A stretch of DNA of 20,000 bases from an uncultured virus (IMG/VR IMGVR_UViG_3300031673_000018) (lineage: Duplodnaviria > Heunggongvirae > Uroviricota > Caudoviricetes), in IMG/VR virus record IMGVR_UViG_3300031673_000018. One strand, 5' to 3'. Made by a program: the position numbers and the translations under genes. Positions 1,687 through 13,922 of this stretch are shown here, one piece after another. The first letter of the stretch is position 1. Each line of letters begins with the position of its first letter. Under the pieces are notes generated by a model. That model worked only from the letters and a program-made list of their open reading frames with translations. It had not been told where the DNA came from and made no database searches.

Positions 1687-1694
1687 TTGTTTTT

Positions 1695-1734
1695 CACCTG
1701 CACGCATTCATCAGGTGCTCAGTAGTGAACTGAG
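1695..1734 (-). repeat. two-hairpin element copy A
   Basis: minus strand: CTCAGT-TCACT-ACTGAG + CACCTG-ATGAATGCGTG-CAGGTG. Confidence 0.9.
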
Positions 1735-1735
1735 A

Positions 1736-1960
1736 TTAAACCGGCTGGTTTAACTCCCGAATGGATTCTTTAAAGCATAGTGGGCATTCTATACGCCCCT
1801 CGTATCCCTTCTTGTAGTTCTCCACTGAGCCGTGGATTGGGCAGTCAAAGCGGTAGAATGGTTCGAAGCCTCTCCAGCCGGGGAATTTCCTGTGCTCAAC
1901 ATATCCAGTAAACAAGAAGAATAGCTTCATCTTCCAGTCCACATAAGATTGGTATTTCAT
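1736..1960 (-). CDS. zinc-ribbon protein (74 aa)
   Basis: CPIH...CPLC motif. Confidence 0.7.
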   Translation of the reverse strand: MKYQSYVDWKMKLFFLFTGYVEHRKFPGWRGFEPFYRFDCPIHGSVENYKKGYEGRIECPLCFKESIRELNQPV

Positions 1961-2220
1961 TATGTATCCCTACTTGTATCCAGATGTTTATCAATTTCGT
2001 TGATGCCTTCATCGAGAAATTTGAATTGGTCTTTTCCCTCGAGTAGCATGAGGCTGCTACCGCTGTCCCACTTGATGCTGTGCTGAGGAATGGAAACTGG
2101 TATAGTGTATGACTGCTGTAGGAAATCGTATGTGCCTCTGTCTCCGGGTTTGAGCTTGGTGTAGGGATCGTCGGTGTGTATTAGTTCTACTCGTCTTCCA
2201 TGGTTCCTGTAATCCATCAT
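1960..2220 (-). CDS. DUF4314-like protein (86 aa)
   Basis: GRRVELIHTDDPYTKLKPGDRGT...IKWDSGSSLMLLEGKDQF resembles the DUF4314 pattern. Confidence 0.75.
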   Translation of the reverse strand: MMDYRNHGRRVELIHTDDPYTKLKPGDRGTYDFLQQSYTIPVSIPQHSIKWDSGSSLMLLEGKDQFKFLDEGINEIDKHLDTSRDT

Positions 2221-2227
2221 TTTATTT

Positions 2228-2267
2228 CACCTGCACGCATTCACCAGGTGTCTGCCTCTCGGTCAGA
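2228..2267 (-). repeat. two-hairpin element copy B
   Basis: minus strand: TCTG-A-CC-GAGA-GG-CAGA + CACCTG-GTGAATGCGTG-CAGGTG; preceded by CCCCATTTTTT. Confidence 0.9.
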
Positions 2268-2277
2268 AAAAATGGGG

Positions 2278-2454
2278 TTATGTTATTTCTATTAGATTGT
2301 AGATTATATGGAATCCATAAGCTAGAAGTATCATGGAGCCCGATACGATGGCGGTTGGTATGTCTCGTTTCCTAGTGTAGACTAGACAGATTATGCCTCT
2401 CTCGAAACACACTCCGCAGGCCATTAGGAACAGGACGATGATTAACTTCTTCAT
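2278..2454 (-). CDS. small hydrophobic, probably membrane protein (58 aa)
   Basis: hand-translated MKKLIIVLFLMACGVCFERGIICLVYTRKRDIPTAIVSGSMILLAYGFHIIYNLIEIT*; ATGA overlap with the upstream stop. Confidence 0.65.
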   Translation of the reverse strand: MKKLIIVLFLMACGVCFERGIICLVYTRKRDIPTAIVSGSMILLAYGFHIIYNLIEIT

Positions 2455-2789
2455 TGCAGCAGACCACAGACCTCGTCTATCAGGTCGTATGTCTCGTCTT
2501 CCACGATGTTACGCCGGTTGAGGGCATGGAAAAACTCTTGGACGAAAAGCTTCCGGACGTTCATATCTACATCCTTGAGTTCGCTGTTCATCGCGTAAGC
2601 GAGGGATGTCGCCAGTCCCCGGGCTGTTCCCCAGCCTAGCTTAGTGCCCCTGTTGAGGGTGCCAGTGACTTCCATCAAGGTCTCAAGTGTCTCCTTGAAT
2701 TCGTTGACTCCGTCGTCGAGCATCTTCTCATGGTCTCTTAGCACAGTGATCAAGAGATCGATGATGTCCATCTTCTCAAGATTGTACAT
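2451..2789 (-). CDS. hypothetical protein (112 aa)
   Basis: ORF in array, overlaps neighbours. Confidence 0.7.
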   Translation of the reverse strand: MYNLEKMDIIDLLITVLRDHEKMLDDGVNEFKETLETLMEVTGTLNRGTKLGWGTARGLATSLAYAMNSELKDVDMNVRKLFVQEFFHALNRRNIVEDETYDLIDEVCGLLQ

Positions 2790-3045
2790 CTAGGTGGGTC
2801 CCCACAAACTCTGTCAGGCTCATCGTGCGATCATCTTTTGCGCTCCAGTGTGCTACAGTGTTCTCGCAGAATGGGCATTGGAGATCAGCTTCCTTCTCAG
2901 TTCCTTCGACCTGTTCTGAAGCTGACCAGTCGATGCATTCTCCGCCGTATCTCTTCTCGCTCTTGTATGCAGTGTACTTGTTTTCCTCGGTTACGTAGAC
3001 AGTTACTTCCTCGTAGTCTTTTTCGCATTTGTTACATGTAGGCAT
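2776..3045 (-). CDS. zinc-ribbon protein (89 aa)
   Basis: CNKC...CPFC; RBS within repeat copy C. Confidence 0.75.
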   Translation of the reverse strand: MPTCNKCEKDYEEVTVYVTEENKYTAYKSEKRYGGECIDWSASEQVEGTEKEADLQCPFCENTVAHWSAKDDRTMSLTEFVGTHLDVQS

Positions 3046-3051
3046 TCTTCT

Positions 3052-3492
3052 TCACCTGCTCGCGTGTTTAGGCCAGGTGTCAGGTAGTGAACCTGATTGT
3101 TCTGCCTCGACCATAGCGCTAACTATGTTTGGTGATATCTGGAGACCGTGTATAGTATCCAGAACTGGGGTTAGTTTTCCTTCGGAGATTAGTGAAACGA
3201 TCTGATCGTGTGCCTTTACGATGTCCTCGGATTCATTGGCTCTGTAATACCCGAAACTGCTGGCCCCTAATTTGGTTGTCTTGAATCTGCTTTCATCCTC
3301 AATCTTGAATATCATGGTTTCATATTTCCAATGCACATCATCGATGCGATCTCTAAGGAACCCAAAGAATTCTAGGATGTTCTCTGGATCCTCAATAACT
3401 CTGATGGTGCTGATCTCCCACTTTGCATCTCCGACATCTACGTAATTGCGTTTCAACACTCTTGGGTGCAGATCGGTATCTTCAGTTATCAA
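3052..3492 (-). CDS. hypothetical protein (146 aa); C-terminus DTWPKHASR encoded by the repeat
   Basis: ORF with TTG start (uncertain); terminates at the TGA of the repeat RBS. Confidence 0.65.
   Translation of the reverse strand: MITEDTDLHPRVLKRNYVDVGDAKWEISTIRVIEDPENILEFFGFLRDRIDDVHWKYETMIFKIEDESRFKTTKLGASSFGYYRANESEDIVKAHDQIVSLISEGKLTPVLDTIHGLQISPNIVSAMVEAEQSGSLPDTWPKHASR
3053..3096 (-). repeat. two-hairpin element copy C
   Basis: minus strand: TCAGGT-TCACT-ACCTGA + CACCTG-GCCTAAACACGCGAG-CAGGTG. Confidence 0.9.
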
Positions 3493-3496
3493 GGCT

Positions 3497-3601
3497 TCAT
3501 CGTTTCCTAGCCAGCACTACTCGCATGACCGTCATCTCTATCTCGGTTAGAGGCTTGGCTATCTCTATCTCATCCTTCGATAGTTGATTGTCTGTACTCA
3601 T
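3497..3601 (-). CDS. mini-ORF (34 aa), or frameshifted N-terminus of 3052..3492
   Basis: hand-translated MSTDNQLSKDEIEIAKPLTEIEMTVMRVVLARKR*. Confidence 0.35.
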   Translation of the reverse strand: MSTDNQLSKDEIEIAKPLTEIEMTVMRVVLARKR

Positions 3602-4328
3602 CTTTCTTAACCTTCTTCTTCTCGCGCTTCCTCATCGTCGGGGCGTTGTCGATGAACTTTTGTAGACCTACCTTAGGGGCCTCAAACTTCGGCATGATCT
3701 CCTCGAGGCGCTCCTTAGACAGAGTCTTCCACATAGTCGGGTATCCTAATGGCTGCCACACCACGGTGCCCTCCCAATACTCGAGGGCGATGCTGTTGCA
3801 GTGGACGTTGAGGCTCGGTATGCCGTAGAGTATCGCATTCATGGTCATGTAGACATACATGCGGAAGTCGATGTCCTGGTTAACGTAGATGAAGTTGAGG
3901 CAGCCAACACGCTTGGCGTAGATCTCGGCGGCGCCGATCATGAATCGCCCGCAGCCTGCAGCGGGGTCGTTAAGCCGTTGGGATTCAGCCATCAGTTGTT
4001 CGTCTGTTTGCACGCCGATGGTCATCTCGCACATCATCCTCACGATAGGCATGGGGGTGAAGAACTGTCCTGCCCGGGAGTTGAGTTGCTCTGTCTCTAT
4101 GAGGTATGACCCGAACATGTCATCCCATTCGCCGTGCCTGGGATCCTTCTGGAATTCCTGATGGGCTAACCAGATCTCCCTTATGAGCTCCATGTTCTCT
4201 TTGTAGTCAGCTGCTGTCTCGGGTGTGAAGTCCTGTGCTTCTTTGATGATCTTAGTGTAGATCTGTCTATCCAGTTTCTTGGTTCCGGTTATCGGCTCGA
4301 GGTTCTTCAGTCTCTTTATCCAGCTCAT
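3570..4328 (-). CDS. N-6 DNA methylase (HsdM-like) domain protein lacking catalytic motif IV
   Basis: GQFFTPMPIVRMM, SAM-binding NDPAAGCGRFM and NQDID present; no NPP(F/Y) anywhere in the ORF. Confidence 0.85.
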   Translation of the reverse strand: MSWIKRLKNLEPITGTKKLDRQIYTKIIKEAQDFTPETAADYKENMELIREIWLAHQEFQKDPRHGEWDDMFGSYLIETEQLNSRAGQFFTPMPIVRMMCEMTIGVQTDEQLMAESQRLNDPAAGCGRFMIGAAEIYAKRVGCLNFIYVNQDIDFRMYVYMTMNAILYGIPSLNVHCNSIALEYWEGTVVWQPLGYPTMWKTLSKERLEEIMPKFEAPKVGLQKFIDNAPTMRKREKKKVKKDEYRQSTIEG

Positions 4329-4818
4329 CGTAGTAGCACCATATCTCTGGGTGTCCTGGGTTAGGGCAGTTGCCCCCGTATTCGCATGGGTAAACCTTGC
4401 ACTTTACGGGACAACTTAGACTCCTATTCCATCCATGGTCGCATGGGAGGTCGTCTTCTCGAGTGTAGTCCGGCGTCTTATGCATGAGGTTCCACTCGTT
4501 GTTCCCCCACCTTAAAGCCTCAGCAAAGTCCTTCGTCGTGAAGGCTATCGCTTCTGTTCCTGTCGGCTTATGGGTGATTACTTGCCATGACTCGGCTTCG
4601 ATGTCCTCCCCATAACCGTGCAGCACAACCGTCCTGCTGAAGGTTCGGTAGAGTTCCCATACTTTGTCGACTAGGTTCCTCCGTAGACTCAGCTGGTGGT
4701 TGGGGAGTATGGTTGTTATCTTATCGGCTGGTATCCATGCGTAGTAGTCAACCTCATGCATCGAGTACCCGGGGTTATCCGGGTCATCTCTTTGGAAAGC
4801 GTATTCACATATCCTCAT
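4267..4818 (-). CDS. hypothetical protein with Cys-rich C-terminus (183 aa)
   Basis: ORF in array. Confidence 0.7.
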   Translation of the reverse strand: MRICEYAFQRDDPDNPGYSMHEVDYYAWIPADKITTILPNHQLSLRRNLVDKVWELYRTFSRTVVLHGYGEDIEAESWQVITHKPTGTEAIAFTTKDFAEALRWGNNEWNLMHKTPDYTREDDLPCDHGWNRSLSCPVKCKVYPCEYGGNCPNPGHPEIWCYYDELDKETEEPRADNRNQETG

Positions 4819-4822
4819 TTCG

Positions 4823-5230
4823 TTAATCCTCTGTTGACTCGAATCTATACTCTTTAGCCTCGAAGTCCTTGATCGTTGCGATCACTTCATGGTTGCTGAA
4901 CATGAATAGCTCAGGATACATGAAGGAATCAAACCCATCCCTTTTCAGCATCCTCTCTATCAGCTGGAAATCTTCTTCATCCTCGTAATGATAGCTTAGG
5001 TACATCACGCTATTCGAATAATTGGGATGATTCACCCAGTCTAAGAGTATCTTCTTACCGTCTTTGACTAGATACATCTGTGCATCTAGACCGAAGATCA
5101 TAGCTTGCCAGATGATCTTCAATGGCGTCCATGGAGGATCCTCCCAATTCTTAGGTGCGTATTGTTCTTCATGTGTTTCATCGATCTGATCTCCGCAGAT
5201 TGAACAGGGCTGTCTGATGTATCTTTTCAT
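4823..5230 (-). CDS. hypothetical protein (135 aa)
   Basis: ORF in array with N-terminal CSIC. Confidence 0.7.
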   Translation of the reverse strand: MKRYIRQPCSICGDQIDETHEEQYAPKNWEDPPWTPLKIIWQAMIFGLDAQMYLVKDGKKILLDWVNHPNYSNSVMYLSYHYEDEEDFQLIERMLKRDGFDSFMYPELFMFSNHEVIATIKDFEAKEYRFESTED

Positions 5231-5234
5231 CTTA

Positions 5235-5666
5235 TCACTTCTTCACGAAGGGCCTCCACCACTGGATGGCTTTCTGGTTGGCGAGCTTGTCGCCTTCCTT
5301 ATCCTCTATGCAGTAGTTGAGGACTCCGTTAGGGAGATCTGTGTCTAGTAGGTTGACCTCGAGGTTTCTGAACTGGGCTACTAGGAATCGGTGCTTGTAC
5401 CTGAGGATGGTTTCGATGAGCTTCTCAAGCCCTCTGGAATGCACCCTCACGGTGCCGTTGACGTTGTATTCCTCGTCTATGAACTCGGTGGTATCCTTCA
5501 CTTCGAATAGGTCCTCGAACTCCTCTGGGGAGAAGGCAAGTATCACCGCTTTCTTTCCCTCCTTAAAGGCGGGATGAAAGGCAGGGTCTACCTGGATCTC
5601 CAGTGTGTGGTAGTCGTCGTCAGGACCCCATCTGTGGGTCTTTACTTCTGTCTCTGCTATCTTCAT
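5235..5666 (-). CDS. hypothetical protein (143 aa)
   Basis: ATG 5 nt after CAGGTG of repeat copy D. Confidence 0.75.
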   Translation of the reverse strand: MKIAETEVKTHRWGPDDDYHTLEIQVDPAFHPAFKEGKKAVILAFSPEEFEDLFEVKDTTEFIDEEYNVNGTVRVHSRGLEKLIETILRYKHRFLVAQFRNLEVNLLDTDLPNGVLNYCIEDKEGDKLANQKAIQWWRPFVKK

Positions 5667-5671
5667 CTAAT

Positions 5672-5715
5672 CACCTGCTCGCATGTTTAGGTCAGGTGTC
5701 TGCCTCTCGGTCAGA
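5672..5715 (-). repeat. two-hairpin element copy D
   Basis: minus strand: TCTG-A-CC-GAGA-GG-CAGA + CACCTG-ACCTAAACATGCGAG-CAGGTG. Confidence 0.9.
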
Positions 5716-5729
5716 ATAAATGAGGGGGT

Positions 5730-5939
5730 CTACCGTAGAATCCTTGATCTTGTTTTGATGCCGATTATCTCGAGCTCCCATTCCAGTTCATCTGGTTTCT
5801 GTTTCTTGTATTTATCCCCGGTTACTGGGTCTATGCCCTTGTCTCTAAGGTATTGGTTATTGATCCTGTGCTGCTCGATGATCTTCTCCGCTATCTCAAG
5901 GTAAGCTATGTCCATGGTTTCATGTTTGCGCATTAACAA
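5730..5939 (-). CDS. hypothetical protein (69 aa)
   Basis: ORF in array. Confidence 0.6.
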   Translation of the reverse strand: MLMRKHETMDIAYLEIAEKIIEQHRINNQYLRDKGIDPVTGDKYKKQKPDELEWELEIIGIKTRSRILR

Positions 5940-6321
5940 TCTTTGATATCCCTTCCTGTATTGAATTCAGTTTCTCCATGATCATCACCATCACACGGTT
6001 TTTCTCGCTGAGGGATTCTATCTTTGCCCTCCTGTGTGGGAGGTTGGTGGAGAGGTGATAAGGTCTACCCTCAAGGGAGCATCTTATTAGGTGCGTGTAG
6101 ATGCGAGATATCTCCTCGAGTAGATTGTGGTGGTGTTGACATAATGGAATCTTGGTTTGCTTGATGACTCTTATATCATCTGGTGTGAGGTCTGGTAGAG
6201 TTTTTAGTAAGGTCTGTGCTATAAGATGATGATCCCCATGCGACGGGAGACCACACATTACACATATTACATCCACTGTATCTCCCTCACTAGATCTCTT
6301 CACAGTATAATCCAAGCTCAA
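5920..6321 (-). CDS. HNH-like zinc-binding protein, paralog 1 (start uncertain)
   Basis: CVMCG...DHHLI...IPLCQHHHN; closely similar to 8658..8999. Confidence 0.65.
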   Translation of the reverse strand: MSLDYTVKRSSEGDTVDVICVMCGLPSHGDHHLIAQTLLKTLPDLTPDDIRVIKQTKIPLCQHHHNLLEEISRIYTHLIRCSLEGRPYHLSTNLPHRRAKIESLSEKNRVMVMIMEKLNSIQEGISKIVNAQT

Positions 6322-6637
6322 GCATGGCCTCGACTTTAAATGGACTGTTCATAAGCCTGAACCGTATCACCTGTTTGTTCCAACTATCCTCTGAGCAGTC
6401 TTTCCTACATGCCTTGCAGAGCTCGTCGGCTTTCTTCATACGATCCTCCGGCTCTTTGGCTGGTCGAATAAGCCTGGTGCCCAGCTGTGTGCCGTATTTC
6501 TTGAAGTGTTCTTGGCACATGTAGGCGTGTATTCCGAGTGTGGTTTGGGCGTCATACTCTGCCGGCTCCGGTGGCTCACGGCCCTCTTGTTTGCAGAAGT
6601 CACAATCAGGTAGCTCGGTCATTGGTGTACTTTCCAT
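6290..6637 (-). CDS. zinc-finger viral protein (115 aa)
   Basis: CDFC...YDAQT...AYMCQEHF...G; RBS in repeat copy E. Confidence 0.75.
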   Translation of the reverse strand: MESTPMTELPDCDFCKQEGREPPEPAEYDAQTTLGIHAYMCQEHFKKYGTQLGTRLIRPAKEPEDRMKKADELCKACRKDCSEDSWNKQVIRFRLMNSPFKVEAMLELGLYCEEI

Positions 6638-6643
6638 CTGGTT

Positions 6644-6892
6644 TCACCTGCTCGCATGTTTAGGCCAGGTGTCTGCCTTTCGGTCAGAAAAAGATGGGGC
6701 ATCATCAGCGTATGCTATCTCTGAATGCCCTTGGCTGCAGAACTGAGACTCGAACTTTGCCTCTGTTCCGTCAGTGAACCGAATTGTGAGACGGTCAAAT
6801 ATGTCACCCCAAACTTTAGGCTCTTCGATTGTTTCCTTGGTCACTTTGGCTATGGTTTTACCTTCTAGTTTCTTCATGGTTCCATTCCTCAA
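6644..6892 (-). CDS. hypothetical protein (about 80 aa); C-terminus encoded by the repeat
   Basis: ORF reads through repeat E (…DRKADTWPKHASR); start may be ATG at 6877. Confidence 0.7.
   Translation of the reverse strand: MRNGTMKKLEGKTIAKVTKETIEEPKVWGDIFDRLTIRFTDGTEAKFESQFCSQGHSEIAYADDAPSFSDRKADTWPKHASR
6645..6688 (-). repeat. two-hairpin element copy E
   Basis: minus strand: TCTG-A-CC-GAAA-GG-CAGA + CACCTG-GCCTAAACATGCGAG-CAGGTG; preceded by CCCCATCTTTTT. Confidence 0.9.
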
Positions 6893-7152
6893 ATTGGCTC
6901 CAGTAATAGGAAGCCTCCGTTTTCATCGTAGTTGCACAGGACATGCTTATCCTCTATGATGATCTCGGTTAGGTCCTCTAGCATAAACTCTGGTTCATAG
7001 TAGAAACAGTCTTCGGGTTTGATGCACACCCATAAAGCGGGCGTCGAGTCTGGGTAAGGTGGATCTATGAAGTCGTTTCCTCTGTCCTCTACCTCGAGCT
7101 CCCTGATCTTTTCAAGGGTGGAGAAGCAGCCGTGGGTGCTGTAAACCTTCAT
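6889..7152 (-). CDS. hypothetical acidic protein (87 aa)
   Basis: ORF in array. Confidence 0.7.
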   Translation of the reverse strand: MKVYSTHGCFSTLEKIRELEVEDRGNDFIDPPYPDSTPALWVCIKPEDCFYYEPEFMLEDLTEIIIEDKHVLCNYDENGGFLLLEPI

Positions 7153-7178
7153 GCCGATGCTTCCTATGTTCTCAGTCC

Positions 7179-7490
7179 TCAGTCGTAGATTACTTCGGAT
7201 CCGCGCCTCTTCATCCAGCTTATCTCTTCGTCTTCATCCCAGATAACCGTAGTTGCCTGATCGAAAGCCCCACGCCACTCTTTCATATGGCAGTGCTTCG
7301 TGTAGACTTTGACGCACACCTTGCTGGGCCCGTCGCATGTCTCCATGACCTCTATCTGGGAGTTGCATTTGTCACACCATAGGCCTCCGAATGGGGCCAA
7401 GTATGTGAACCGGGTTCCCCCACATACGGGGCATTTGAAGTAGGGCCTGGTTATCGGGTTGAAGTTTCCTATCATGTGTATGCTTATCAT
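7179..7490 (-). CDS. zinc-ribbon protein (103 aa)
   Basis: CPVC...CDKC; GGTGA RBS. Confidence 0.75.
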   Translation of the reverse strand: MISIHMIGNFNPITRPYFKCPVCGGTRFTYLAPFGGLWCDKCNSQIEVMETCDGPSKVCVKVYTKHCHMKEWRGAFDQATTVIWDEDEEISWMKRRGSEVIYD

Positions 7491-7494
7491 TTTA

Positions 7495-7818: not shown

Positions 7819-8225
7819 CTACGTTTTACCATACCGTGAAACTCGCCTTTGAGGATCTTCTTCAAGTCGTCTCTGAAGCTGTCGACGCTAGACTTGGGGT
7901 GGTACTCCCTCTCTGGGTCTGAACTGACTTGACCATCAACGGAGTGTGACTCGCCTTCTGTCAATATGAACTCGGGTATGTAGTTTTCGATGTTCTCCAG
8001 TGCGACGTCTATCCGTGTCATGAGATCCGTTACAACATCCAGGAGGTTGCCTGAGTCGACGTCATCGATAGGGTTGACACCTGCCCGTGTCAGCATGTAG
8101 TTGTGTCGGACCTCGACCTGTTCCTCGTCGCTCATGTTGCCCCACATCCTGCAGACTACAAGGCTTTCCTTGATTTCCCAATGTAGTTTATCCCACCAGC
8201 TCTGAACTTCTGTGTCATCGACCAT
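7815..8225 (-). CDS. hypothetical protein (136 aa)
   Basis: ORF in array. Confidence 0.7.
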   Translation of the reverse strand: MVDDTEVQSWWDKLHWEIKESLVVCRMWGNMSDEEQVEVRHNYMLTRAGVNPIDDVDSGNLLDVVTDLMTRIDVALENIENYIPEFILTEGESHSVDGQVSSDPEREYHPKSSVDSFRDDLKKILKGEFHGMVKRR

Positions 8226-8229
8226 GCTC

Positions 8230-8616
8230 TCACGATCTGTTGATGATCTCTCTCAGAAGCTCGTTACCTAGTGGTGTTAGCCTGTCGTGAACTTCGTTGT
8301 CGAACTCTGCTAGGATGTCGTTGATCTCCTCCAAGCTGGGTGGATGCCTGTCCTTCTCCTCGAGGAACATCTTCTCGACGTCATCGGAGCCCCAACTGAG
8401 GGTAACTGTCTGCTTCTCCGCCGCGAAGATCGTCCGCCGTAGGAGCTCTAGTTGCTGTGGTAATAAGCGAACAACTTCACCTAGGTTTTGCTGGGTCCTA
8501 AAACACTTGAAAAAACTGTATCCCTTCTCGGATCTGATTTGTTTTTCCTTCACCCATTCCTCAGGGGTGAATCGCCGGTAATGGTTGGTCTCGTATTCTT
8601 CGTATATGTAAATCAT
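8230..8616 (-). CDS. hypothetical protein (128 aa)
   Basis: ATG at 8616 follows the RBS in repeat copy F. Confidence 0.7.
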   Translation of the reverse strand: MIYIYEEYETNHYRRFTPEEWVKEKQIRSEKGYSFFKCFRTQQNLGEVVRLLPQQLELLRRTIFAAEKQTVTLSWGSDDVEKMFLEEKDRHPPSLEEINDILAEFDNEVHDRLTPLGNELLREIINRS

Positions 8617-8622
8617 TTTTTT

Positions 8623-8666
8623 CACCTGCTCGCATTTTTAGGCCAGGTGTCAGGTCGTTAACCTGA
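8623..8666 (-). repeat. two-hairpin element copy F
   Basis: minus strand: TCAGGT-TAACG-ACCTGA + CACCTG-GCCTAAAAATGCGAG-CAGGTG. Confidence 0.9.
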
Positions 8667-8999
8667 TGTCGATACCAGTTTGTATATTGAATCGAGCTTC
8701 TCCATGATCATCACGCGATTATTCTCACTAAAGGACTCTATATTCGCCCTTCTATGTAGAAGAGTTGTTGATAGCCGGTACGGTCTCCCCTCTAGCGCAC
8801 ATCTTATTAAATGTACATACATTCGTGCCACCTCATCGAGAAGGTTGTGATGATGGCGGCATGTAGGAACCGTAAGGTCGTTAATCATCCTCATATCATC
8901 CGGTGTAAGGTTGGGTAGGGTTTTTAGCAAGGTCTTTGCTATAAGATGGTGCTCCCCGTCTGCCGGGAACCCACATATTACGCAGATCATCGGACTCAT
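8658..8999 (-). CDS. HNH-like zinc-binding protein, paralog 2 (113 aa)
   Basis: CVICG...EHHLI...VPTCRHHHN; paralog of 5920..6321. Confidence 0.7.
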   Translation of the reverse strand: MSPMICVICGFPADGEHHLIAKTLLKTLPNLTPDDMRMINDLTVPTCRHHHNLLDEVARMYVHLIRCALEGRPYRLSTTLLHRRANIESFSENNRVMIMEKLDSIYKLVSTSG

Positions 9000-9013
9000 T
9001 TACTCGCCTGCTT

Positions 9014-9322
9014 CTAGTTCGTTGGTTCTACCTCTGCTCCTTTGATAGAACAGTTGCCGTCCTCGTAGTTGCAGCAGATACTAGGCTGCTCATGGTGGAC
9101 GTGTCCTTCTACAAGCTCCTCGCATTTATGGGTGCAGGACGCCATATAACGGCAGTCGACGCAGCACGCCTCACAGGTTGGGAAGTCGTCCAGAAGGTCT
9201 AGGTCGCAGGTGTTGCACACCATGGACGCTACAACCACGGAGCGGTTATAGAAGCCTACTTTAGCATACACTCCGCCGCAGCGGGGGCACGGCTTCTCTA
9301 GCTTCTGAGTTTCAAATCTCAT
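9014..9322 (-). CDS. Cys-rich protein (102 aa)
   Basis: multiple CxxC motifs. Confidence 0.7.
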   Translation of the reverse strand: MRFETQKLEKPCPRCGGVYAKVGFYNRSVVVASMVCNTCDLDLLDDFPTCEACCVDCRYMASCTHKCEELVEGHVHHEQPSICCNYEDGNCSIKGAEVEPTN

Positions 9323-9327
9323 TTTAG

Positions 9328-9633
9328 CTATTCACCCCCAACTAGTTCGTTCGCCAGTCGCCAAGCCACGCAGTAGTGGGGGTCGTTAGGCATCCTTACT
9401 AGCTTTGAGTCTCCTATCTCCGTGGGTCCACCTTCTCCGCAGTGTCCGTCTATGTCTGGGTTATACTCTGGGTCACTGAGGTCGTTGTCGGCTGTGAAGT
9501 GATCGCAGTAGGCACATGACCTCTCTGCAAACTCGCCGCAGAATTCGGCTAGCTCTTCAAGCCAAGCTATCTCCGTCATGTGTTTATGCGCCTTGCAGCT
9601 GTCAATTCTAATGCATAATCCGCAGTCTACCAT
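9328..9633 (-). CDS. Cys-rich protein (101 aa)
   Basis: ATG at 9633 after the RBS in repeat copy G; CGLC and CAYC motifs. Confidence 0.7.
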   Translation of the reverse strand: MVDCGLCIRIDSCKAHKHMTEIAWLEELAEFCGEFAERSCAYCDHFTADNDLSDPEYNPDIDGHCGEGGPTEIGDSKLVRMPNDPHYCVAWRLANELVGGE

Positions 9634-9638
9634 TTTTT

Positions 9639-9678
9639 CACCTGCACGCATTCACCAGGTGTCTGCCTTTCAGTCAGA
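9639..9678 (-). repeat. two-hairpin element copy G
   Basis: minus strand: TCTG-A-CT-GAAA-GG-CAGA + CACCTG-GTGAATGCGTG-CAGGTG; preceded by CCCTTTT. Confidence 0.9.
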
Positions 9679-9684
9679 AAAGGG

Positions 9685-9852
9685 TTAATGCCAGCCAGAT
9701 GTTTCTCTAACCATCTTCACCAGCATAACCGATAGTGTAGGGTACTTTGAAACCGTCTCTTCGTATATTTCACTAGCCTCGTCTTCATCAAAGATGCTCT
9801 TACTGGACACCCAGCTGTTGCTTGATGTCATGGTTAAGACTCTCCATACCAT
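9685..9852 (-). CDS. hypothetical protein (55 aa)
   Basis: hand-translated MVWRVLTMTSSNSWVSSKSIFDEDEASEIYEETVSKYPTLSVMLVKMVRETSGWH*; GAGGG RBS. Confidence 0.6.
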   Translation of the reverse strand: MVWRVLTMTSSNSWVSSKSIFDEDEASEIYEETVSKYPTLSVMLVKMVRETSGWH

Positions 9853-9860
9853 GTAATCCC

Positions 9861-10199
9861 TCACGTTATGACGACGCGCTCAATCATCTTGCATAGTCTG
9901 CGTATTGTGTGAGGTGGTATCCGTGTCGCTGACCAGACCTCATGCTGGGTGATAGGAGGATCCACGTGCTTGCCGGCGATGTAGATTGCACCCGCTATGA
10001 GTGCAGATGGTTTCTTCATCTGCAGTATGTCCGGTTCAGCCTCGTAAACCCTTCTGAGGAGATCCCTGGCCTGCTCTGCAATGACCGCCTCATCCTGGTC
10101 GTTTCTGATCGATCTGTCAGCGTCCAGAATCTCTCCTATGGTTTCCACGAAACCAGATAATGGCAAGCGTCGACCTACTGTTTCCTCGAAACCTTTCAT
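9861..10199 (-). CDS. TFB/TFIIB single cyclin-repeat protein (mini-TFB)
   Basis: AEQARDLLRR...KKPSALIAGAIYIAG...ITQHEVWSATRIPPHTIRRLCK resembles the TFIIB cyclin repeat with its HTH; GGTGA RBS. Confidence 0.75.
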   Translation of the reverse strand: MKGFEETVGRRLPLSGFVETIGEILDADRSIRNDQDEAVIAEQARDLLRRVYEAEPDILQMKKPSALIAGAIYIAGKHVDPPITQHEVWSATRIPPHTIRRLCKMIERVVIT

Positions 10200-10209
10200 G
10201 GACTCTCAC

Positions 10210-10725
10210 CTATCCTGCTTCGATGCCGTCGTAATATGAAGTTCTATCCGCTTCCCACGCCTCTCTGCCGTCGAGGTCGGCGCAGTCTTCACACGCCTCA
10301 TGTCGCTTCGCTGGCTCCAACTGGTTGAAGCATATGCATATTAGGCATGGGTGGATCTGGTTCAAGTCGAGTTCCAGGAGGGCGTGCGGTGCCTTGTATC
10401 TCTTGAGGGTTTCGACGTCCTCTAGTAGACCTGCGATGCTGGCCATTGATGCCTTTAAGACTCTCTCGAGGCGGTTCAGCTGCTCAGTGTGGTCGTTGGT
10501 TCTACTTGCGTGGAATAGCCCGGTCTTCAGAAGGTTGGCGTTGTACTCTATGCTCTCAACTACCTTCCCCAATGGAAGGGGGGTCCCGTCTACACGTCGC
10601 CTCATATCCTCGTGTCTTCGGTGGTATGTGTCTGGTGTTATGTCGCCGATTTCAAGCTGCTTGTTAAGTAGCTCCTTATCCTTTAGGAACTTCTTCAGCC
10701 TAGTTTCTACGCTTATATTACTCAT
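10210..10725 (-). CDS. hypothetical coiled-coil and Cys-motif protein (171 aa)
   Basis: ORF with SHOCT-like GDITPDTY segment and C-terminal CxxC motifs. Confidence 0.7.
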   Translation of the reverse strand: MSNISVETRLKKFLKDKELLNKQLEIGDITPDTYHRRHEDMRRRVDGTPLPLGKVVESIEYNANLLKTGLFHASRTNDHTEQLNRLERVLKASMASIAGLLEDVETLKRYKAPHALLELDLNQIHPCLICICFNQLEPAKRHEACEDCADLDGREAWEADRTSYYDGIEAG

Positions 10726-10744
10726 TTTTCTTCACTTGGGGCTA

Positions 10745-10784
10745 AGCCCCGTCGCATATTCGGGGCTGGAGGGCGCTACCCTCC
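10745..10784 (-). repeat. two-hairpin element copy H (divergent)
   Basis: minus strand: GGAGGG-TAGCG-CCCTCC + AGCCCCG-AATATGCGA-CGGGGCT. Confidence 0.7.
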
Positions 10785-10788
10785 GTGG

Positions 10789-10893
10789 TTAAGCAGCCCT
10801 TTCGCTTCTTAGAATATAGAGGGAAACGGCGCCGAAGGCTGTGACTGAGATGACCGTCATTTTCAAAACGAAGAAGATCATTTCTCGTATCAT
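10789..10893 (-). CDS. small single-TM protein (34 aa)
   Basis: hand-translated MIREMIFFVLKMTVISVTAFGAVSLYILRSERAA*; GGAG upstream. Confidence 0.5.
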   Translation of the reverse strand: MIREMIFFVLKMTVISVTAFGAVSLYILRSERAA

Positions 10894-10898
10894 GGCGC

Positions 10899-11162
10899 TT
10901 ACTCCGTGAGTTGTTCCGGGGTTACTGCCATCATTCGCTCGTAGTAGCCGAGCCAGCGTTTGCCTTCCTTCGTAGTATAGTAGTGTTTGTCACTCTCTAT
11001 GACTAGAAGGCCTCCGCTCACCATCTTCTTCAGGTATTTCTTCGTTAGATCCCAGCTGAGGTTTGCCCCGAACTGGATATGTGTTTTTCTCATGCCGTCC
11101 TTGGCGAGCCGCGCTATGTCGGCCGCTATGTCAAGGTCGTTTCTTCTGTTGTTTTCATTCAT
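10899..11162 (-). CDS. archaeal winged helix-turn-helix regulator (HTH_45-like)
   Basis: RRNDLDIAADI...RKTHIQFGANLSWDLTKKYLKKMVSGGLL...YYTTKEG; RBS in repeat copy I. Confidence 0.85.
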   Translation of the reverse strand: MNENNRRNDLDIAADIARLAKDGMRKTHIQFGANLSWDLTKKYLKKMVSGGLLVIESDKHYYTTKEGKRWLGYYERMMAVTPEQLTE

Positions 11163-11168
11163 ATCCTT

Positions 11169-11208
11169 CACCTGCACGCATTCACCAGGTGCCAGCCTTT
11201 CGGTCTGG
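11169..11208 (-). repeat. two-hairpin element copy I
   Basis: minus strand: CCAG-A-CC-GAAA-GG-CTGG + CACCTG-GTGAATGCGTG-CAGGTG. Confidence 0.9.
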
Positions 11209-11221
11209 TTGGATTATGATC

Positions 11222-11240
11222 AATATAAAAAAAGGGTGGG
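11222..11240 (-). terminator. pyrimidine/U-tract terminator with overlapping TATA-like sequence
   Basis: minus strand CCCACCCTTTTTTTATATT, identical to 13121-13139. Confidence 0.55.
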
Positions 11241-11267
11241 TAATTGTTAGCGATAACGTCTGCCCGG

Positions 11268-11462
11268 CTAGTCGCTCTTGGGCGTTGTGACGTTAATGCT
11301 GAATTTGTTTTTCGTGTCGTCCATCATGGGCATGAAGCCGCCAGTGGTAGCTAGTATCTTGGTTTTACCCGAGTTACTTAGCTTGGGGCTGTCCTGCACA
11401 GGCCAGCGTATTACTACGTGACCGTCCATGATCTTCGCGCCTACGAAGTCAAGGTCTCCCAT
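11268..11462 (-). CDS. small hypothetical viral protein (64 aa)
   Basis: ORF containing SNSGKTKILATTGG. Confidence 0.7.
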   Translation of the reverse strand: MGDLDFVGAKIMDGHVVIRWPVQDSPKLSNSGKTKILATTGGFMPMMDDTKNKFSINVTTPKSD

Positions 11463-11713
11463 TGCTGAGTTACTTCCCTTAGTTTAGCCCGTTTACGCCT
11501 CTCCACTAAAATTCTCCGTCGTGGTTTGGCGATCAAGGATAACGGTTCCGAATCCCTACCTCACCCAGCCGTTTAGCATGTTCGGGCTCGGGTTTCCCCA
11601 CTCTCCACGCCTGCTCACAGTATGGGGCTCGTGATACGAGAAGCGCCGGCGGAGAACCGGATTTTGGTATGGAAACCATGTTCCGCCGGCACTAGTATTC
11701 TCGTGGCTGTGGT

Positions 11714-11890
11714 TTATTTGGTTTGCTGCTTATCTTTTCTATACGGGTTTGCTGGCATATCCAGAGTGAAACCCACTTCATCGGGTTCAAACTTCTCCCC
11801 ACACTCCTTGCATATATAAAAAGGGGTTTTTCGTATGAGCTCGCCTCCGCAGAGTAGGCACGTGTTAGCTGGCCATGTTGGCTTGCTCAT
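11714..11890 (-). CDS. zinc-ribbon protein (58 aa)
   Basis: hand-translated MSKPTWPANTCLLCGGELIRKTPFYICKECGEKFEPDE...; GAGGT RBS. Confidence 0.7.
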   Translation of the reverse strand: MSKPTWPANTCLLCGGELIRKTPFYICKECGEKFEPDEVGFTLDMPANPYRKDKQQTK

Positions 11891-11891
11891 G

Positions 11892-12047
11892 TTACCTCAC
11901 TCTTTCCTGTAGCCATTTAAAGCTCTTATAGCTGATTTGTTTATCACATGATCCGGAGAACTGACACACATCATCGTCAGCGAGGAACCCACAGTGTTTC
12001 CACTCAGTTTCCCTTATCTCCTTCGCTATCCTGCAGCGGTTATTCAT
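11892..12047 (-). CDS. small Cys-containing protein (51 aa)
   Basis: hand-translated MNNRCRIAKEIRETEWKHCGFLADDDVCQFSGSCDKQISYKSFKWLQERVR*; TAATG overlap with the upstream stop. Confidence 0.55.
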   Translation of the reverse strand: MNNRCRIAKEIRETEWKHCGFLADDDVCQFSGSCDKQISYKSFKWLQERVR

Positions 12048-12130
12048 TAACGCCACACTCTAATCTGTTCCCTCATGGCTTCTCTCAGGAGGATAACTAG
12101 AATGTATGCGACTACCTCCTTCTTACCCAT
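12047..12130 (-). CDS. mini-ORF (27 aa)
   Basis: MGKKEVVAYILVILLREAMREQIRVWR*; GAGGT RBS; abuts both neighbours. Confidence 0.4.
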   Translation of the reverse strand: MGKKEVVAYILVILLREAMREQIRVWR

Positions 12131-12289
12131 CTACCTCAAGCCTCTTCCACAGAACCTGCAGAAATTGGCCCCTGGGCGGTTGATCTGCTCACACCCGGGG
12201 CATTGAACTATCACTAGCTTGTCGAGCTGTGGATCTCTCCTGTAAGTCCGAAGTATTTTCCAGTCATGGCTTATTTCGTTTGGTTCCAT
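12131..12289 (-). CDS. zinc-ribbon protein (52 aa)
   Basis: hand-translated ...QCPGCEQINRPGANFCRFCGRGLR*. Confidence 0.7.
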   Translation of the reverse strand: MEPNEISHDWKILRTYRRDPQLDKLVIVQCPGCEQINRPGANFCRFCGRGLR

Positions 12290-12584
12290 GATCACTCATC
12301 CTCTTTATGGGCTTCAGAGTAACCTTGCTCACCCTGAGGTATATCTTGGTCTCAGGTTTCTGCCGTATGAGCTGCTTTACCGCGTCCCTGTCATGCCTGG
12401 TGGCTTTCAGGGATCGGCTGACGTCTGGCGCATCTCTGTGAAAATATTTGCGCCTGTGGGGAAAGGGTACAGATACACGCTCCACCGGATCAGTTAGACT
12501 CGGCTCACGCGGCCTGTGTTTCCGTTTCAGACTACGCTTGGGTCCATACACTAGCTGAAGCCAGCTCTCATGTAATTCAGACAC
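12264..12584 (-). CDS. basic hypothetical protein (106 aa)
   Basis: ORF in array with GGTGA RBS. Confidence 0.6.
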   Translation of the reverse strand: MSELHESWLQLVYGPKRSLKRKHRPREPSLTDPVERVSVPFPHRRKYFHRDAPDVSRSLKATRHDRDAVKQLIRQKPETKIYLRVSKVTLKPIKRMSDHGTKRNKP

Positions 12585-12792
12585 CTAGATCACCGTAAGT
12601 TACCGGTAAGGCTATGAGGGTGTGCAGAAGGCCATCACAGCATTTGCAGTGGACTTCTGTTATTAACCCATCCAGGTCCGTGTTTACGTCGACTTCGACC
12701 TTGCCTTTAGTGCATTTGCACTTGAAGTGGCGTCTGGAGAGTAGCTTTTGCTGTGTTGGGCCCCGTAGCTGTCTAAGGCTCGGTTGCCACAT
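12577..12792 (-). CDS. small Cys-containing protein (71 aa)
   Basis: CKC...CKCC; GAGG RBS. Confidence 0.6.
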   Translation of the reverse strand: MWQPSLRQLRGPTQQKLLSRRHFKCKCTKGKVEVDVNTDLDGLITEVHCKCCDGLLHTLIALPVTYGDLGV

Positions 12793-12811
12793 TTTGTTTC
12801 CTCTGTCGAGC

Positions 12812-12988
12812 TCATCTATGCCTGTACTTCACTGTCGCGTATACACTAATGCTTGCAGGATCCCGGCTCGCGCTCACTATTTCTAGTCCAGGTGCCACAA
12901 AACGACACCAGCTAGTGAACTCGCCCTGATCCTTGAAGGTCTTGGTGTAGACCCCGTCTGAATCCGGCTTTATTTCACAAATCATCAT
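12812..12988 (-). CDS. hypothetical protein (about 58 aa, start uncertain)
   Basis: ATG at 12988 with GAGGG upstream; the track start (13075) lies in the repeat loop. Confidence 0.55.
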   Translation of the reverse strand: MMICEIKPDSDGVYTKTFKDQGEFTSWCRFVAPGLEIVSASRDPASISVYATVKYRHR

Positions 12989-13062
12989 TGGTTTCCCTCT
13001 GGGTCGCCTCGACGGGTTAGTACCCCGTTTCATCGGCGTATGTCTTATCGGCGGGTTAGTAC

Positions 13063-13101
13063 CTCGCCCACGCATTCACGGCGAGCCAGCTTTGACTCTG
13101 G
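13063..13101 (-). repeat. two-hairpin element copy K (covaried stem)
   Basis: minus strand: CCAG-AGTCAAAG-CTGG + CTCGCC-GTGAATGCGTG-GGCGAG. Confidence 0.85.
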
Positions 13102-13120
13102 ATGTCCTCAATCCGCCTTT

Positions 13121-13165
13121 AATATAAAAAAAGGGTGGGCTCCCCTGCTGAAAGAGTCACCCACC
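13121..13165 (-). terminator. hairpin plus U-tract terminator
   Basis: minus strand GGTGACTC...GAGCCCACC followed by CTTTTTTT. Confidence 0.55.
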
Positions 13166-13249
13166 CGTAGGGTTAGTTCTGTCTCTAGTAGTTGTCAGTC
13201 GTAACTGTACATCTGCTTTAACCACCGAGAGTATGCTGCCTAGGAAGCC

Positions 13250-13292
13250 AACCCCCACACATTTTTAGGCGGGGTTTCACGATTTGCACGTG
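13250..13292 (-). repeat. two-hairpin element copy L (covaried stem)
   Basis: minus strand: CACG-TGCAAAT-CGTG-A + AACCCC-GCCTAAAAATGTGTG-GGGGTT; follows CACCCTTTTTT. Confidence 0.8.
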
Positions 13293-13314
13293 TTAAAAAA
13301 GGGTGTAGGTTTCC

Positions 13315-13779
13315 CTACGAAGGCTTGCGCTTAAGGGCCCTATTGGTGATGATGCGCTGGAGAACCTTGGGGTCAAGTTTCTTGGATGCCTTTATGGGGC
13401 CTCCACGAATCTCCTCCCTGATGGTTCTCGCATCTCCCATGTACAAGGCAGCCGCGTCATTGTAGTCTCGCCTAACAGCGCTGTCGCATTTCGCCAGCTT
13501 AACCGCTATGTTAATCTGGGCTGTAAGGGTGGCTCTGTCCTCGAAGAGTTTAACGCAAGCCATTGGGTCTTCTGGGAGCTGCCCAGATTGCCAGAAGGCT
13601 TTGTTTATCTCTGACATGAGCTCATTTACCTTAGCGCGAGCATTCCTCTGAGTCTTGGCTAGGTTGTCTGCCTTGTCCTTGAGGTCCTTAGAGTAATCCG
13701 AAGCAGCCCACGACTTGTCCAGATTTTCCATCAAGGCTTCAATCTGGGCGGGGTCATAGGCTGACTGTGCCGTCTGCAT
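13315..13779 (-). CDS. hypothetical helical protein (154 aa)
   Basis: ORF with GAGGG RBS. Confidence 0.75.
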   Translation of the reverse strand: MQTAQSAYDPAQIEALMENLDKSWAASDYSKDLKDKADNLAKTQRNARAKVNELMSEINKAFWQSGQLPEDPMACVKLFEDRATLTAQINIAVKLAKCDSAVRRDYNDAAALYMGDARTIREEIRGGPIKASKKLDPKVLQRIITNRALKRKPS

Positions 13780-13821
13780 TCTTTTTCCCTCTTTGAGGTC
13801 TAGCTTCCTAGGATTCAGCCT

Positions 13822-13853
13822 ATACCGCCACGCATCAACACCGTATGGAAACC
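13822..13853 (-). repeat. two-hairpin element copy M (divergent)
   Basis: minus strand: GG-TTT-CC + ATACGGT-GTTGATGCGTG-GCGGTAT; follows a C-run and TTTTT. Confidence 0.6.
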
Positions 13854-13922
13854 ATTAGGTCAAAAAGGGGGGGGGGAATATTCCTTTTTAGGGGTCTTTC
13901 CCGGGCATGGCCCTGAGCTCCG

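Follow-up and report, generated by a model that had tools for sequence, protein, structure and literature searches.

A repeated two-hairpin RNA element at start codons and exchange points in the gene array of a likely archaeal mobile element

The DNA analyzed here is a stretch of 20,000 nucleotides (nt), hereafter the window, from an uncultured virus of the Caudoviricetes (IMG/VR record IMGVR_UViG_3300031673_000018). Judged from its sequence, the window contains a ~45-nt two-hairpin RNA motif, in which a first hairpin (P1) abuts a second (P2), and which is repeated before about ten gene groups. The copies form a family whose stems change in the compensatory manner of a structured RNA, they lie on the strand from which the genes are read, the canonical ones stand directly before start codons, and breakpoints between related genomes fall at their edges. 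The reading we favor, with a confidence that stops a little short of even, is that the element is a portable RNA leader with two functions, that of a translational operator and that of a linker in recombination. Several features point to this reading, namely a fixed register relative to the start codon, a Shine-Dalgarno sequence that is predicted to be occluded, a loop that is conserved separately from its stem, and alternative hairpins in some copies; from the same features we infer a trans-acting factor and the direction of control.

The setting is an array of approximately 38 small, closely packed minus-strand open reading frames (ORFs) that extends from position 14135 down to 25 and has a G+C content of ~50%. 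As had been proposed in an earlier description of this DNA made from the sequence alone (the original prediction), the element punctuates this array.

Copies, fold and relatives of the element

The P2 pattern CACCTG-N(4-9)-AYGCGWG-CAGGTG matched the window exactly at eight positions (1695, 2228, 3053, 5672, 6645, 8623, 9639 and 11169), all of them on the minus strand, while the number expected by chance was 0 (200 shuffles). A covariance model of nine copies (R1), the ninth being 13063 with the stem CUCGCC/GGCGAG, gave its nine copies scores of 50-69 bits on the minus strand only, and the next match scored 10.6 bits. A larger model of 23 copies (R2) added 13244-13294 as a full-length match (E 0.014). 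At 10745 this model detected P2 only, and weakly (10.4 bits, E 0.68); single-sequence folding of that copy gave a clear P1 and P2 at -25.1 kcal/mol, and the copy is conserved in the related contig L109 at 2596-2646. In total, the window has 11 verified copies (eight exact and three divergent), one remnant at 13822 and one false lead at 11567. The original prediction had listed twelve copies in the same orientation and a tentative thirteenth. Eleven of the twelve were found to be real, all on the minus strand. The twelfth, 13822, was rejected as a verified member because it was missed by both models and does not fold into the motif, retaining only the loop motif GAUGCGUG and five of six stem positions. 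The tentative copy at 11567 was also rejected, as neither the covariance models nor folding supported its membership. Inspection of the sequence bore out the P1-P2 spacer of 0-1 nt, the stem variants that had been listed, and the division of P2 loops into two classes that share AUGCG(U/A)G.

Single-sequence folding formed the two abutting hairpins in 25 of 25 copies, 11 from the window and 14 from outside it, and did not form them in 13822 or 11567. In an alignment of 23 rows (A4), 94.5% of cells were paired, a value that none of 500 shuffles reached; shuffling gave 73.5%, and when the partner strand was slid only 19-36% of cells were paired. Compensatory changes were present in 11 of the 12 modelled pairs, in agreement with the earlier claim that pairing is kept while the stems change. 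The stems, 4-7 base pairs (bp) long across copies, contain six G·U and no A·C pairs, the G·U pairs being confined to the sense strand, which in 17 of 22 copies is the more stable of the two when folded (-14.2 vs. -12.4 kcal/mol). Five P1 loops (2228, 5672, 6645, 9639 and 11169) are GNRA tetraloops on this strand only, as previously noted. Together, the compensatory changes, the sense-only G·U pairs and the GNRA loops support a structured element that is read on the coding strand.

Several known RNA motifs were considered and rejected. In a K-turn, tandem sheared G·A pairs follow a bulge of three nucleotides, and reading of the loops gave no K-turn or K-loop (L7Ae site), as the strand opposite the bulge was without the required GA. 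By eye, a kissing interaction between the P1 loop (UUCAC) and the P2 loop (GUGAA) fits only some P1/P2 combinations, and neither a GNRA tetraloop-receptor pair nor mimicry of a tRNA T-arm by P1 was upheld, the sole fit to the latter being the copy at 2354 of the related contig L133. In that copy (2354-2404, minus strand, upstream of the PCNA gene), P1 is a textbook T-arm sequence with a 5-bp stem and a 7-nt loop, P2 lies 27 nt from a start codon that has its own purine-rich site, and just upstream there is a GC-rich hairpin after the MCM stop codon.

Scanning of a metagenome collection with the P2 pattern gave at least 122 stretches, and flanking sequence was fetched for 80 loci. Among the matches listed, five contigs have high-scoring copies (L109, L133, L087, L137 and L114), and these contribute the 14 outside copies. 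L109, of 6 kb, is 79-92% identical to window genes, which it has in another order. L133, represented by 12 kb of a 110-kb contig, encodes MCM, PCNA, ParB and a C5-methylase. In all five contigs the copies follow the orientation of the genes, rather than the random orientation relative to transcription that had been named as grounds for doubting the element. New P2 variants include CGCCUG/CAGGCG, AUCGCC/GGCGAU and CUCGCCG/CGGUGAG. In IMG/VR, the pattern was present at five loci, each single-copy and low-scoring, and searches there with three window proteins gave no relatives save one unrelated 52-kb virus, which has only a 27-residue N-terminus in common with a window protein and in which the element is absent. 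A search of Rfam 15 with the whole window (E ≤1) returned only the tRNA described below and a weak ylbH match elsewhere, and two single elements gave 0 matches at E ≤10, consistent with the statement of the original prediction that this is not a known RNA family. For archaeal viruses, we found no dispersed structured RNA family described either in Rfam or by full-text literature searching. A term search of a paper on Bathyarchaeia viruses gave no mention of hairpins, intergenic repeats or Shine-Dalgarno sequences.

Among GTDB genomes (one per prokaryote species) there were 56 matches to the P2 pattern, 55 of which were single chance matches, mostly bacterial. The only archaeal match was on a contig of a Bathyarchaeia metagenome-assembled genome, where it is spacer 2 of a CRISPR array with 37-nt repeats and a period of 72-73 nt, located between RAMP genes and a Csm6 gene. 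This spacer is identical to c5672 at 30 of 30 bases (window 5671-5700), and by the usual repeat orientation its polarity is that of the mRNA. Related repeats form ordinary arrays in other Bathyarchaeia genomes. Except as this spacer, the element was not found in the 151 Bathyarchaeia genomes searched, nor in five chosen genomes; other short matches to Bathyarchaeia genomes had no flanking repeats and were taken as chance. The matching array (L071, G005:C1, 6336-7171, minus strand) has a further peculiarity. Seven of its 10 spacers end in an A-rich stretch and ATG(A), with a purine-rich Shine-Dalgarno-like motif 4-8 nt upstream, so that, in register with the repeat, these seven resemble translation-initiation regions. 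The repeats of the array have 0-8 mismatches, an unusual degree of degeneracy. Spacer ends of this kind are absent from a related array, that of a second Bathyarchaeia genome (L233).

Start codons, upstream boxes and exchange at element edges

In all eight canonical window copies, the 3' arm of P2 and the next base read AGGUGA, and these are followed by an A-rich linker of 5-8 nt and then ATG; in outside copies, ATG or TTG is at the same distance. GGTGA was also present before five window genes that do not have the element, and GGAGGTGA before a plus-strand window gene. Since the motif precedes genes with and without the element, it likely represents the local Shine-Dalgarno motif, an assignment based on its position before many window genes and on the 3' end of 16S rRNA as generally known. 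A search of Bathyarchaeia genomes for the host's anti-Shine-Dalgarno sequence yielded two 16S genes, both of which stop short of the 3' end. The location of a Shine-Dalgarno sequence in the P2 arm was missed by the original prediction, as were the upstream box and the recombination breakpoints described below and the CRISPR spacer match.

For the eight copies, P2 alone is predicted to have a folding energy of -7.0 to -8.9 kcal/mol, and the mean predicted probability that the AGGUG core is unpaired is 0.056. The P2 stems are perfect Watson-Crick helices with four G-C pairs, enclosing a loop of 9-15 nt that matches no known aptamer in Rfam. By computation, then, P2 would occlude the ribosome-binding site, with the Shine-Dalgarno sequence paired to an internal anti-Shine-Dalgarno sequence. 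In the copy L133:7594, the stem CGCCUG/CAGGCG retains pairing while the Shine-Dalgarno sequence is weakened. That pairing is kept at the expense of the Shine-Dalgarno sequence suggests that the hairpin itself is under selection.

The loop sequence AUGCG was retained in copies whose stems are wholly different (c10745, c13063, L133:4272 and L109:144), and c13250 has AUGUG. The persistence of this sequence despite replaced stems, and away from start codons, suggests that the loop has a role of its own, and from its conservation we infer that the element is recognized by a protein, as was originally proposed. Three copies without an adjoining start codon (c10745, c13063 and L133:2354) have a switch-like layout, in which a third segment could pair with the P2 3' arm. 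Several of the listed ORF starts lie inside the P2 loop and are artefacts of its AUG. We rejected the possibility that this AUG is a start codon or begins an upstream ORF, as its frame matches that of the main ORF in 8 of 21 scored copies, the chance level being about one-third; stop codons near the main start are expected from the A-rich linker.

The coding strand of positions 1-14300 has nine runs of T5 or longer, of which five are directly upstream of verified copies and one is upstream of the remnant 13822, usually after a C-rich stretch. The same kind of box (C-rich plus T5-7) abuts P1 in related contigs, and TTTATATT is found before two copies. Overall, a C-rich/T-run box is present before about half of the copies and none is present before the others, and the distance from T-run to P2 ranges from 16 to 22 nt. 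Copies without a T-run or TATA-like box are c1695, c3053, c8623, c10745, L109:2019, L133:7594, L133:4272, L137:1181 and the copy of L114; two of them, c8623 and L133:7594, have the upstream gene's stop codon within P1 or immediately before it. As these box-less copies keep both hairpins, P1-P2 is apparently maintained independently of the transcription signal. The box could represent a TATA element or an oligo-T terminator, or combine the two. A CC+TTTTAT box resembling those of the elements is located 28 nt before the 5' end of the window tRNA. In this region of the plus strand (16785-18237), a 43-nt promoter-like repeat (GGGGCATAGCC-TTTTATGG-TGT...) is present six or seven times, in some cases after a palindrome; one copy is located 28 nt ahead of the tRNA 5' end and another ~50 nt ahead of a small ORF with the GGAGGTGA site.

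Comparison of the window with L109 revealed that homology breaks at 11214 (5 nt before c11169), 10788 (the 5' edge of c10745) and 9632 (the 3' edge of c9639). In L109, gene 25-291 adjoins a c11169-like element, and between two elements one unrelated gene replaces three window genes. The contigs L087 and L137 have 99.1% identity over 703 nt, ending 6 nt upstream of P1. L133, L087 and L137 have only the element in common with the window, and a 43-nt stretch of c11169 is identical to the copy in the otherwise unrelated L133. When contigs of four public DNA runs were compared with the window, 10 of 15 listed joints (out of 22) ended within 7 nt of an element edge, three of these 10 resting on sides of only 20-24 nt, and many loose contig ends begin at element edges. 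The excess of breakpoints at element edges is large versus a uniform null and modest versus a null of any gene boundary. The best reading of these comparisons is that the 45-nt cassette would be a patch of homology at which gene groups are swapped along with their expression signal, that is, a recombination linker.

Two further observations concern other copies of the element. At L109 3360-3395 (plus strand), the positional homologue of c9639 has a different P1, in front of which is a duplicate of a 5' fragment (CTGACC) of the P1 type found in the window, resembling a scar left by exchange between copies. In three runs, contigs connect 8667 with position 1 of the window, with a 48-nt side, and the simplest reading is that another c8623-like copy is present after gene 25-291, just outside the window.

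Readings of the element

We hypothesize that the element is a cis-acting RNA leader, which would be transcribed from the minus strand together with the genes and would precede the first gene of each small group. It would consist of the sequence-variable hairpin P1 abutting P2, in which the 5' arm CACCUG (anti-Shine-Dalgarno) would pair with the 3' arm CAGGUG plus A (Shine-Dalgarno) 5-8 nt before the start codon, and of the P2 loop with its conserved 3' half, AUGCG(U/A)(G). In such a leader, P2 would keep the ribosome-binding site closed and would be fixed or opened by a loop-reading factor, most probably a protein encoded by the host or by the mobile element, with the result that all genes bearing the element would form one translational regulon. 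Of the three mechanisms originally offered, that of a translational operator has gained positional evidence, in that P2 carries the Shine-Dalgarno sequence 5-8 nt before the start codon, and the other two, discussed below, fit poorly.

A number of points weigh against a translational operator. If the upstream box is a TATA element, transcripts would start in or just after P1 and part of the structure would be missing from them. The window was found in six soil-metagenome DNA runs and in one run of small share, and no RNA run was among these. Three or four copies (13063, 13250, L133:2354 and L109:144) do not adjoin a start codon, which argues that occlusion of the Shine-Dalgarno sequence is not the sole role of the element. 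No partner was found among 30 window proteins by Pfam, in which there was no RNA-binding domain at E ≤0.5, and the window and the examined parts of L133, L087 and L137 have no protein in common. The covariation data also have to be read with care: the copies are not independent, some being identical via recent exchange; the alignment A4 was fitted to the model; and the pattern used to find outside relatives specifies the common P2 stem, so that every contig was bound to have at least one copy with it. With MAFFT and RNAalifold, only the outer 4 bp of P1 were recovered from 22 copies, because the divergent P2 rows misalign.

Two rival readings are live. One, which we consider unlikely, is that the element punctuates RNA processing or stability, either as an endonuclease site (e.g., in the P2 loop or beside the U-run) or as a 5' protective structure. 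Cutting of polycistronic transcripts would then yield units with P1-P2 as a shield at the 5' end, and a cut in the loop would free the Shine-Dalgarno sequence. This would suit the distribution of the elements, which fill nearly all of the larger intergenic gaps and bound groups of 1-5 packed genes, as well as the conserved single-stranded loop motif, which suits a sequence-specific nuclease, and the U-runs that immediately precede P1 in roughly half the copies. A new 5' end bearing two stable, adjacent hairpins would also be an obstacle to 5'-3' exonucleases. However, a pure stabiliser needs neither a conserved loop of 11-15 nt nor a fixed distance to the start codon, bulge-helix-bulge geometry was not evident on reading, and no nuclease gene was recognized in the window by Pfam and PHROG scans. 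Sites like those for RNase III in phage T7, as specifically suggested, are also a poor fit. The T7 sites are hairpins that punctuate a polycistronic early region and have roughly two turns (~20 bp) of double-stranded RNA interrupted by an internal loop, and the stems here, at only 6-7 bp (4-7 bp if all stems are counted), are far shorter than RNase III substrates.

The other live rival, to which we assign a somewhat lower probability again, is a cassette that acts on transcription: the box would serve as a TATA promoter, as an oligo-T terminator or as both, with the hairpins modulating promoter use, termination or antitermination, and the Shine-Dalgarno sequence would merely form the 3' end of the cassette. 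Six of the nine T5 or longer runs are upstream of copies (five verified, one remnant), a box of the same C-rich+T5-7 type abuts P1 in related contigs, the identical box CCCACCCTTTTTTTATATT precedes two copies, and the tRNA has a similar CC+TTTTAT box 28 nt before it. Antitermination had been suggested by the put sites of HK022, where two stem-loops 0-1 nt apart, at one or two sites downstream of early promoters, act on the polymerase. The element shares the two stem-loops at most 1 nt apart, but it has 11 copies in the window, eight of them 5-8 nt before a start codon, and the polymerase would be archaeal; a put-like antiterminator fits poorly because the copies are tied to the start codon, and an antiterminator has no need of a start codon 5-8 nt away. 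More generally, the cassette would be an archaeal counterpart of PeSL, the stem-loops of T4-type phages, which in the excerpts of the published account lie within or beside a promoter and have a 3' end formed by a Shine-Dalgarno sequence and start codon (PMC2839356). Roughly half of our copies lack a T-run or TATA-like box, though, the distance from T-run to P2 is variable (16-22 nt), and covarying stems of variable sequence are a misfit for recognition of double-stranded DNA.

Two further readings are less likely. That the element is a DNA-level recombination site, used by a recombinase as a single strand that folds during replication, so that the array would be a cassette platform similar to that of integrons, we regard as improbable. 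It is favored by small genes of the same orientation being separated by sites conserved in structure and not in sequence, by the breakpoints at element edges, by the sharing of the element among otherwise unrelated mobile elements, and by strand-specific G·T pairs, which would suit a folded single DNA strand too. An integron attC site, however, is a single long imperfect hairpin with paired core sites and a nearby integrase, whereas the element has two separate short hairpins, and no integrase or recombinase was recognized in the window (Pfam, PHROGs). The breakpoints are at both the 5' and 3' edges, a pattern better suited to homologous exchange across a repeat than to a crossover at one fixed point, and the fixed register with Shine-Dalgarno sequence and start codon would have no role. 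Least probable of all, in our estimation, is a selfish dispersed repeat (REP- or MITE-like) that is spread by gene conversion and tolerated, its conservation reflecting recent spread. The identical 43-nt copies in unrelated genomes, the chimeric or duplicated 5' part of P1 in L109:3372, and the many contigs of the same samples that have only the element in common could be so explained, but the orientation is always that of the genes, canonical copies keep the start-codon register, the element provides the only good Shine-Dalgarno sequence of its gene, and both pairing and loop motif persist in old, fully diverged copies.

For a translational operator that is also a recombination linker, the closest analogues appear to be PeSL in genome role and layout, the SAS and ESAS motifs of mycobacteriophages in position, and MS2-type operators and the RegA regulon in proposed action. 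An MS2/PP7-type operator is a hairpin over a ribosome-binding site with a sequence-specific loop, present once per genome; the element would likewise have a hairpin that covers the ribosome-binding site and a specific loop, and differs in that only for the phage operators is the binding protein known. T4 RegA is one repressor that acts on the initiation regions of many early genes; the likeness is in one factor serving many genes, and the difference is that RegA sites are unstructured. The predicted pairing of the Shine-Dalgarno sequence with an internal anti-Shine-Dalgarno sequence is that of a Shine-Dalgarno-sequestering riboregulator, as in a thermometer or riboswitch platform. Such platforms have a ligand aptamer or a heat-labile stem containing mismatches.

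In Cluster K mycobacteriophages, SAS is a 13-bp consensus, 5'-GGGATAGGAGCCC, an asymmetric repeat with the ribosome-binding site, and there are reportedly 11-19 copies per genome in one orientation, 3-8 bp ahead of the start codon in a subset of genes; roughly half are accompanied by an inverted repeat immediately upstream (ESAS, 17-bp), and a role in translation initiation is suspected (PMC3203893). The element is alike as a repeat of one orientation with the ribosome-binding site just before start codons. The sequences, however, are unrelated, the ESAS half-sites are conserved in sequence, as in a site on DNA or RNA bound by a protein, whereas the stems of the element covary, the host is bacterial, and Shine-Dalgarno occlusion is not described in the excerpts of that report (PMC3203893). 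PeSL resembles the element in being a repeated intergenic stem-loop motif whose end is formed by the Shine-Dalgarno sequence and start codon of the following gene, in being concentrated among small genes of unknown function, and in lying at breakpoints of insertion, deletion or replacement between related genomes, as a linker for homologous exchange (PMC2839356). It differs in being defined by a sigma-70 early promoter and having a stem-loop that is a terminator, in contrast to a putative box in about half of the copies here, and in the absence from its excerpted description of two covarying hairpins, a conserved loop, a Shine-Dalgarno sequence inside a stem and an archaeal host. Neighboring copies of PeSL also give rise to mini-circles. 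Overall, the element belongs to none of these systems and appears to be a dispersed regulatory cassette, archaeal, with a Shine-Dalgarno-sequestering RNA structure.

Almost nothing is known of post-transcriptional gene control in viruses of uncultured archaea such as the Bathyarchaeia, and the element offers a testable handle, being a compact covarying RNA predicted to occlude the ribosome-binding site of about ten genes. It suggests that the modular genome shuffling by mobile regulatory cassettes of the T4 type operates in archaeal mobile elements too, with an RNA structure at its core, and the covariance model provides a marker to recover these elements from metagenomes and to link them to hosts via CRISPR spacers. 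A more speculative proposal, which we think unlikely, is that the element is an RNA "plug" shared by a community of archaeal mobile elements, such that a gene group acquired with the cassette would be placed under one translational switch worked by a single loop-binding factor, possibly a host factor that recognizes a ready-made mimic of the Shine-Dalgarno/anti-Shine-Dalgarno helix. If so, the plug would be an RNA-level counterpart of the integron, one sequence serving as exchange site and as operator for the timing of expression, and its being conserved more than any other sequence of these elements would naturally make it a target for CRISPR.

Gene content and other features of the window

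The setting of the window is likely archaeal, as had been supposed, based on the intron-bearing tRNA, the TFIIB-repeat protein and the Bathyarchaeia CRISPR spacer. The tRNA gene (Table 1) was not reported by ARAGORN in the window; its insertion is presumably an archaeal intron. The product of 9861-10199 could be a truncated transcription-factor-B-like regulator encoded by the mobile element. Six window proteins matched PHROG families without assigned function. There were no virion genes within the window, and for this reason "virus" is only likely and "archaeal mobile element" is the safe term. In a collection of known phages there was no nucleotide match to the window and a single weak match involving a methyltransferase. 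Beyond the minus-strand array there is a stretch of lower G+C and then a plus-strand region.

Table 1. Positions of element copies, promoter-like boxes and genes in the window.
Feature	Position	Strand	Details
c1695	1689..1735	-	P1 1734-1718 (CUCAGU/ACUGAG, loop UCACU); P2 1717-1695 (CACCUG/CAGGUG, loop AUGAAUGCGUG); linker AAAAACAA; start codon 1686; model scores 59-62 bits
c2228	2222..2268	-	P1 with GAGA tetraloop; P2 2250-2228; start codon 2220; C-rich box and T6 (2272-2267) upstream, abutting P1
c3053	3047..3097	-	P1 UCAGGU/ACCUGA; P2 3079-3053, class-2 loop with ACG instead of AUG; start codon 3045; upstream ORF runs through the element up to UGA within GGUGA
c5672	5666..5716	-	P1 with GAGA loop; P2 5698-5672, class-2 loop; start codon 5666
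c6645	6639..6689	-	P1 with GAAA loop; P2 6671-6645, class-2 loop; start codon 6637; C-rich box and T5 (6692-6688) upstream, abutting P1
c8623	8617..8667	-	P1 UCAGGU/ACCUGA, loop containing stop codon of upstream gene; P2 8649-8623; start codon 8616; no T-run
c9639	9633..9679	-	P1 with GAAA loop; P2 9661-9639, class-1 loop; start codon 9633
c10745 (divergent)	10738..10786	-	P1 10784-10768 (GGAGGG/CCCUCC); P2 10767-10745 (AGCCCCG/CGGGGCU, 9-nt loop AAUAUGCGA); start codon 10725; third segment (to 10738) alternative partner of P2 3' arm
c11169	11163..11209	-	P1 CCAG/CUGG, GAAA loop; P2 11191-11169; start codon 11162 (winged-helix gene)
c13063	13056..13102	-	P1 13101-13086; P2 13085-13063 (CUCGCC/GGCGAG, class-1 loop); 48-51 bits; start codon not close downstream; downstream segment alternative partner of P2 3' arm
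c13250 (divergent)	13244..13294	-	P1 13292-13278 (CACG/CGUG); P2 13276-13250 (AACCCC/GGGGUU, loop with AUGUG); T6 at 13300-13295 upstream; no ORF downstream
13822, degenerate remnant ("copy M")	13822..13846	-	Loop motif GAUGCGUG, 5/6 stem; C10 T5 (13866-13862) upstream
Promoter-like box CCCACCCTTTTTTTATATT	11222..11240	-	13 nt upstream of c11169 P1; putative function
Promoter-like box CCCACCCTTTTTTTATATT, second identical copy	13121..13139	-	19 nt upstream of c13063 P1
DUF4314 protein	start codon 2220	-	Gene after c2228
N6-methyltransferase-like protein	3570-4328	-	
TFIIB-repeat protein	9861-10199	-	112 residues; TFIIB cyclin repeat match, E 7e-6
Winged-helix protein	10899-11177	-	
Zinc ribbons			Several products among window ORFs
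tRNA gene	18081-18185	+	Rfam match 54.6 bits; 34-nt insertion after anticodon stem

Two other features of the minus strand were noted. The genes 5920-6321 and 8658-8999 are Cys/His-rich paralogues with 71% nucleotide identity over 285 nt. Their products have paired CxxC and HH motifs, a weak match to DUF968 (E 0.099) is the sole hint of a family, and one of the two genes terminates inside P1 of c8623. The mostly intergenic sequence at 11580-11727, which includes the false copy 11567 of the original prediction, has counterparts of 82-86% identity, 100-146 nt long, in three Bathyarchaeia genomes (L194, L195 and L196). It has no Rfam match and contains a long conserved hairpin, GCCGGCGG/CCGCCGGC, extended by CGAGAAU/UUCUCG; it could be a non-coding RNA or an attachment-type site.

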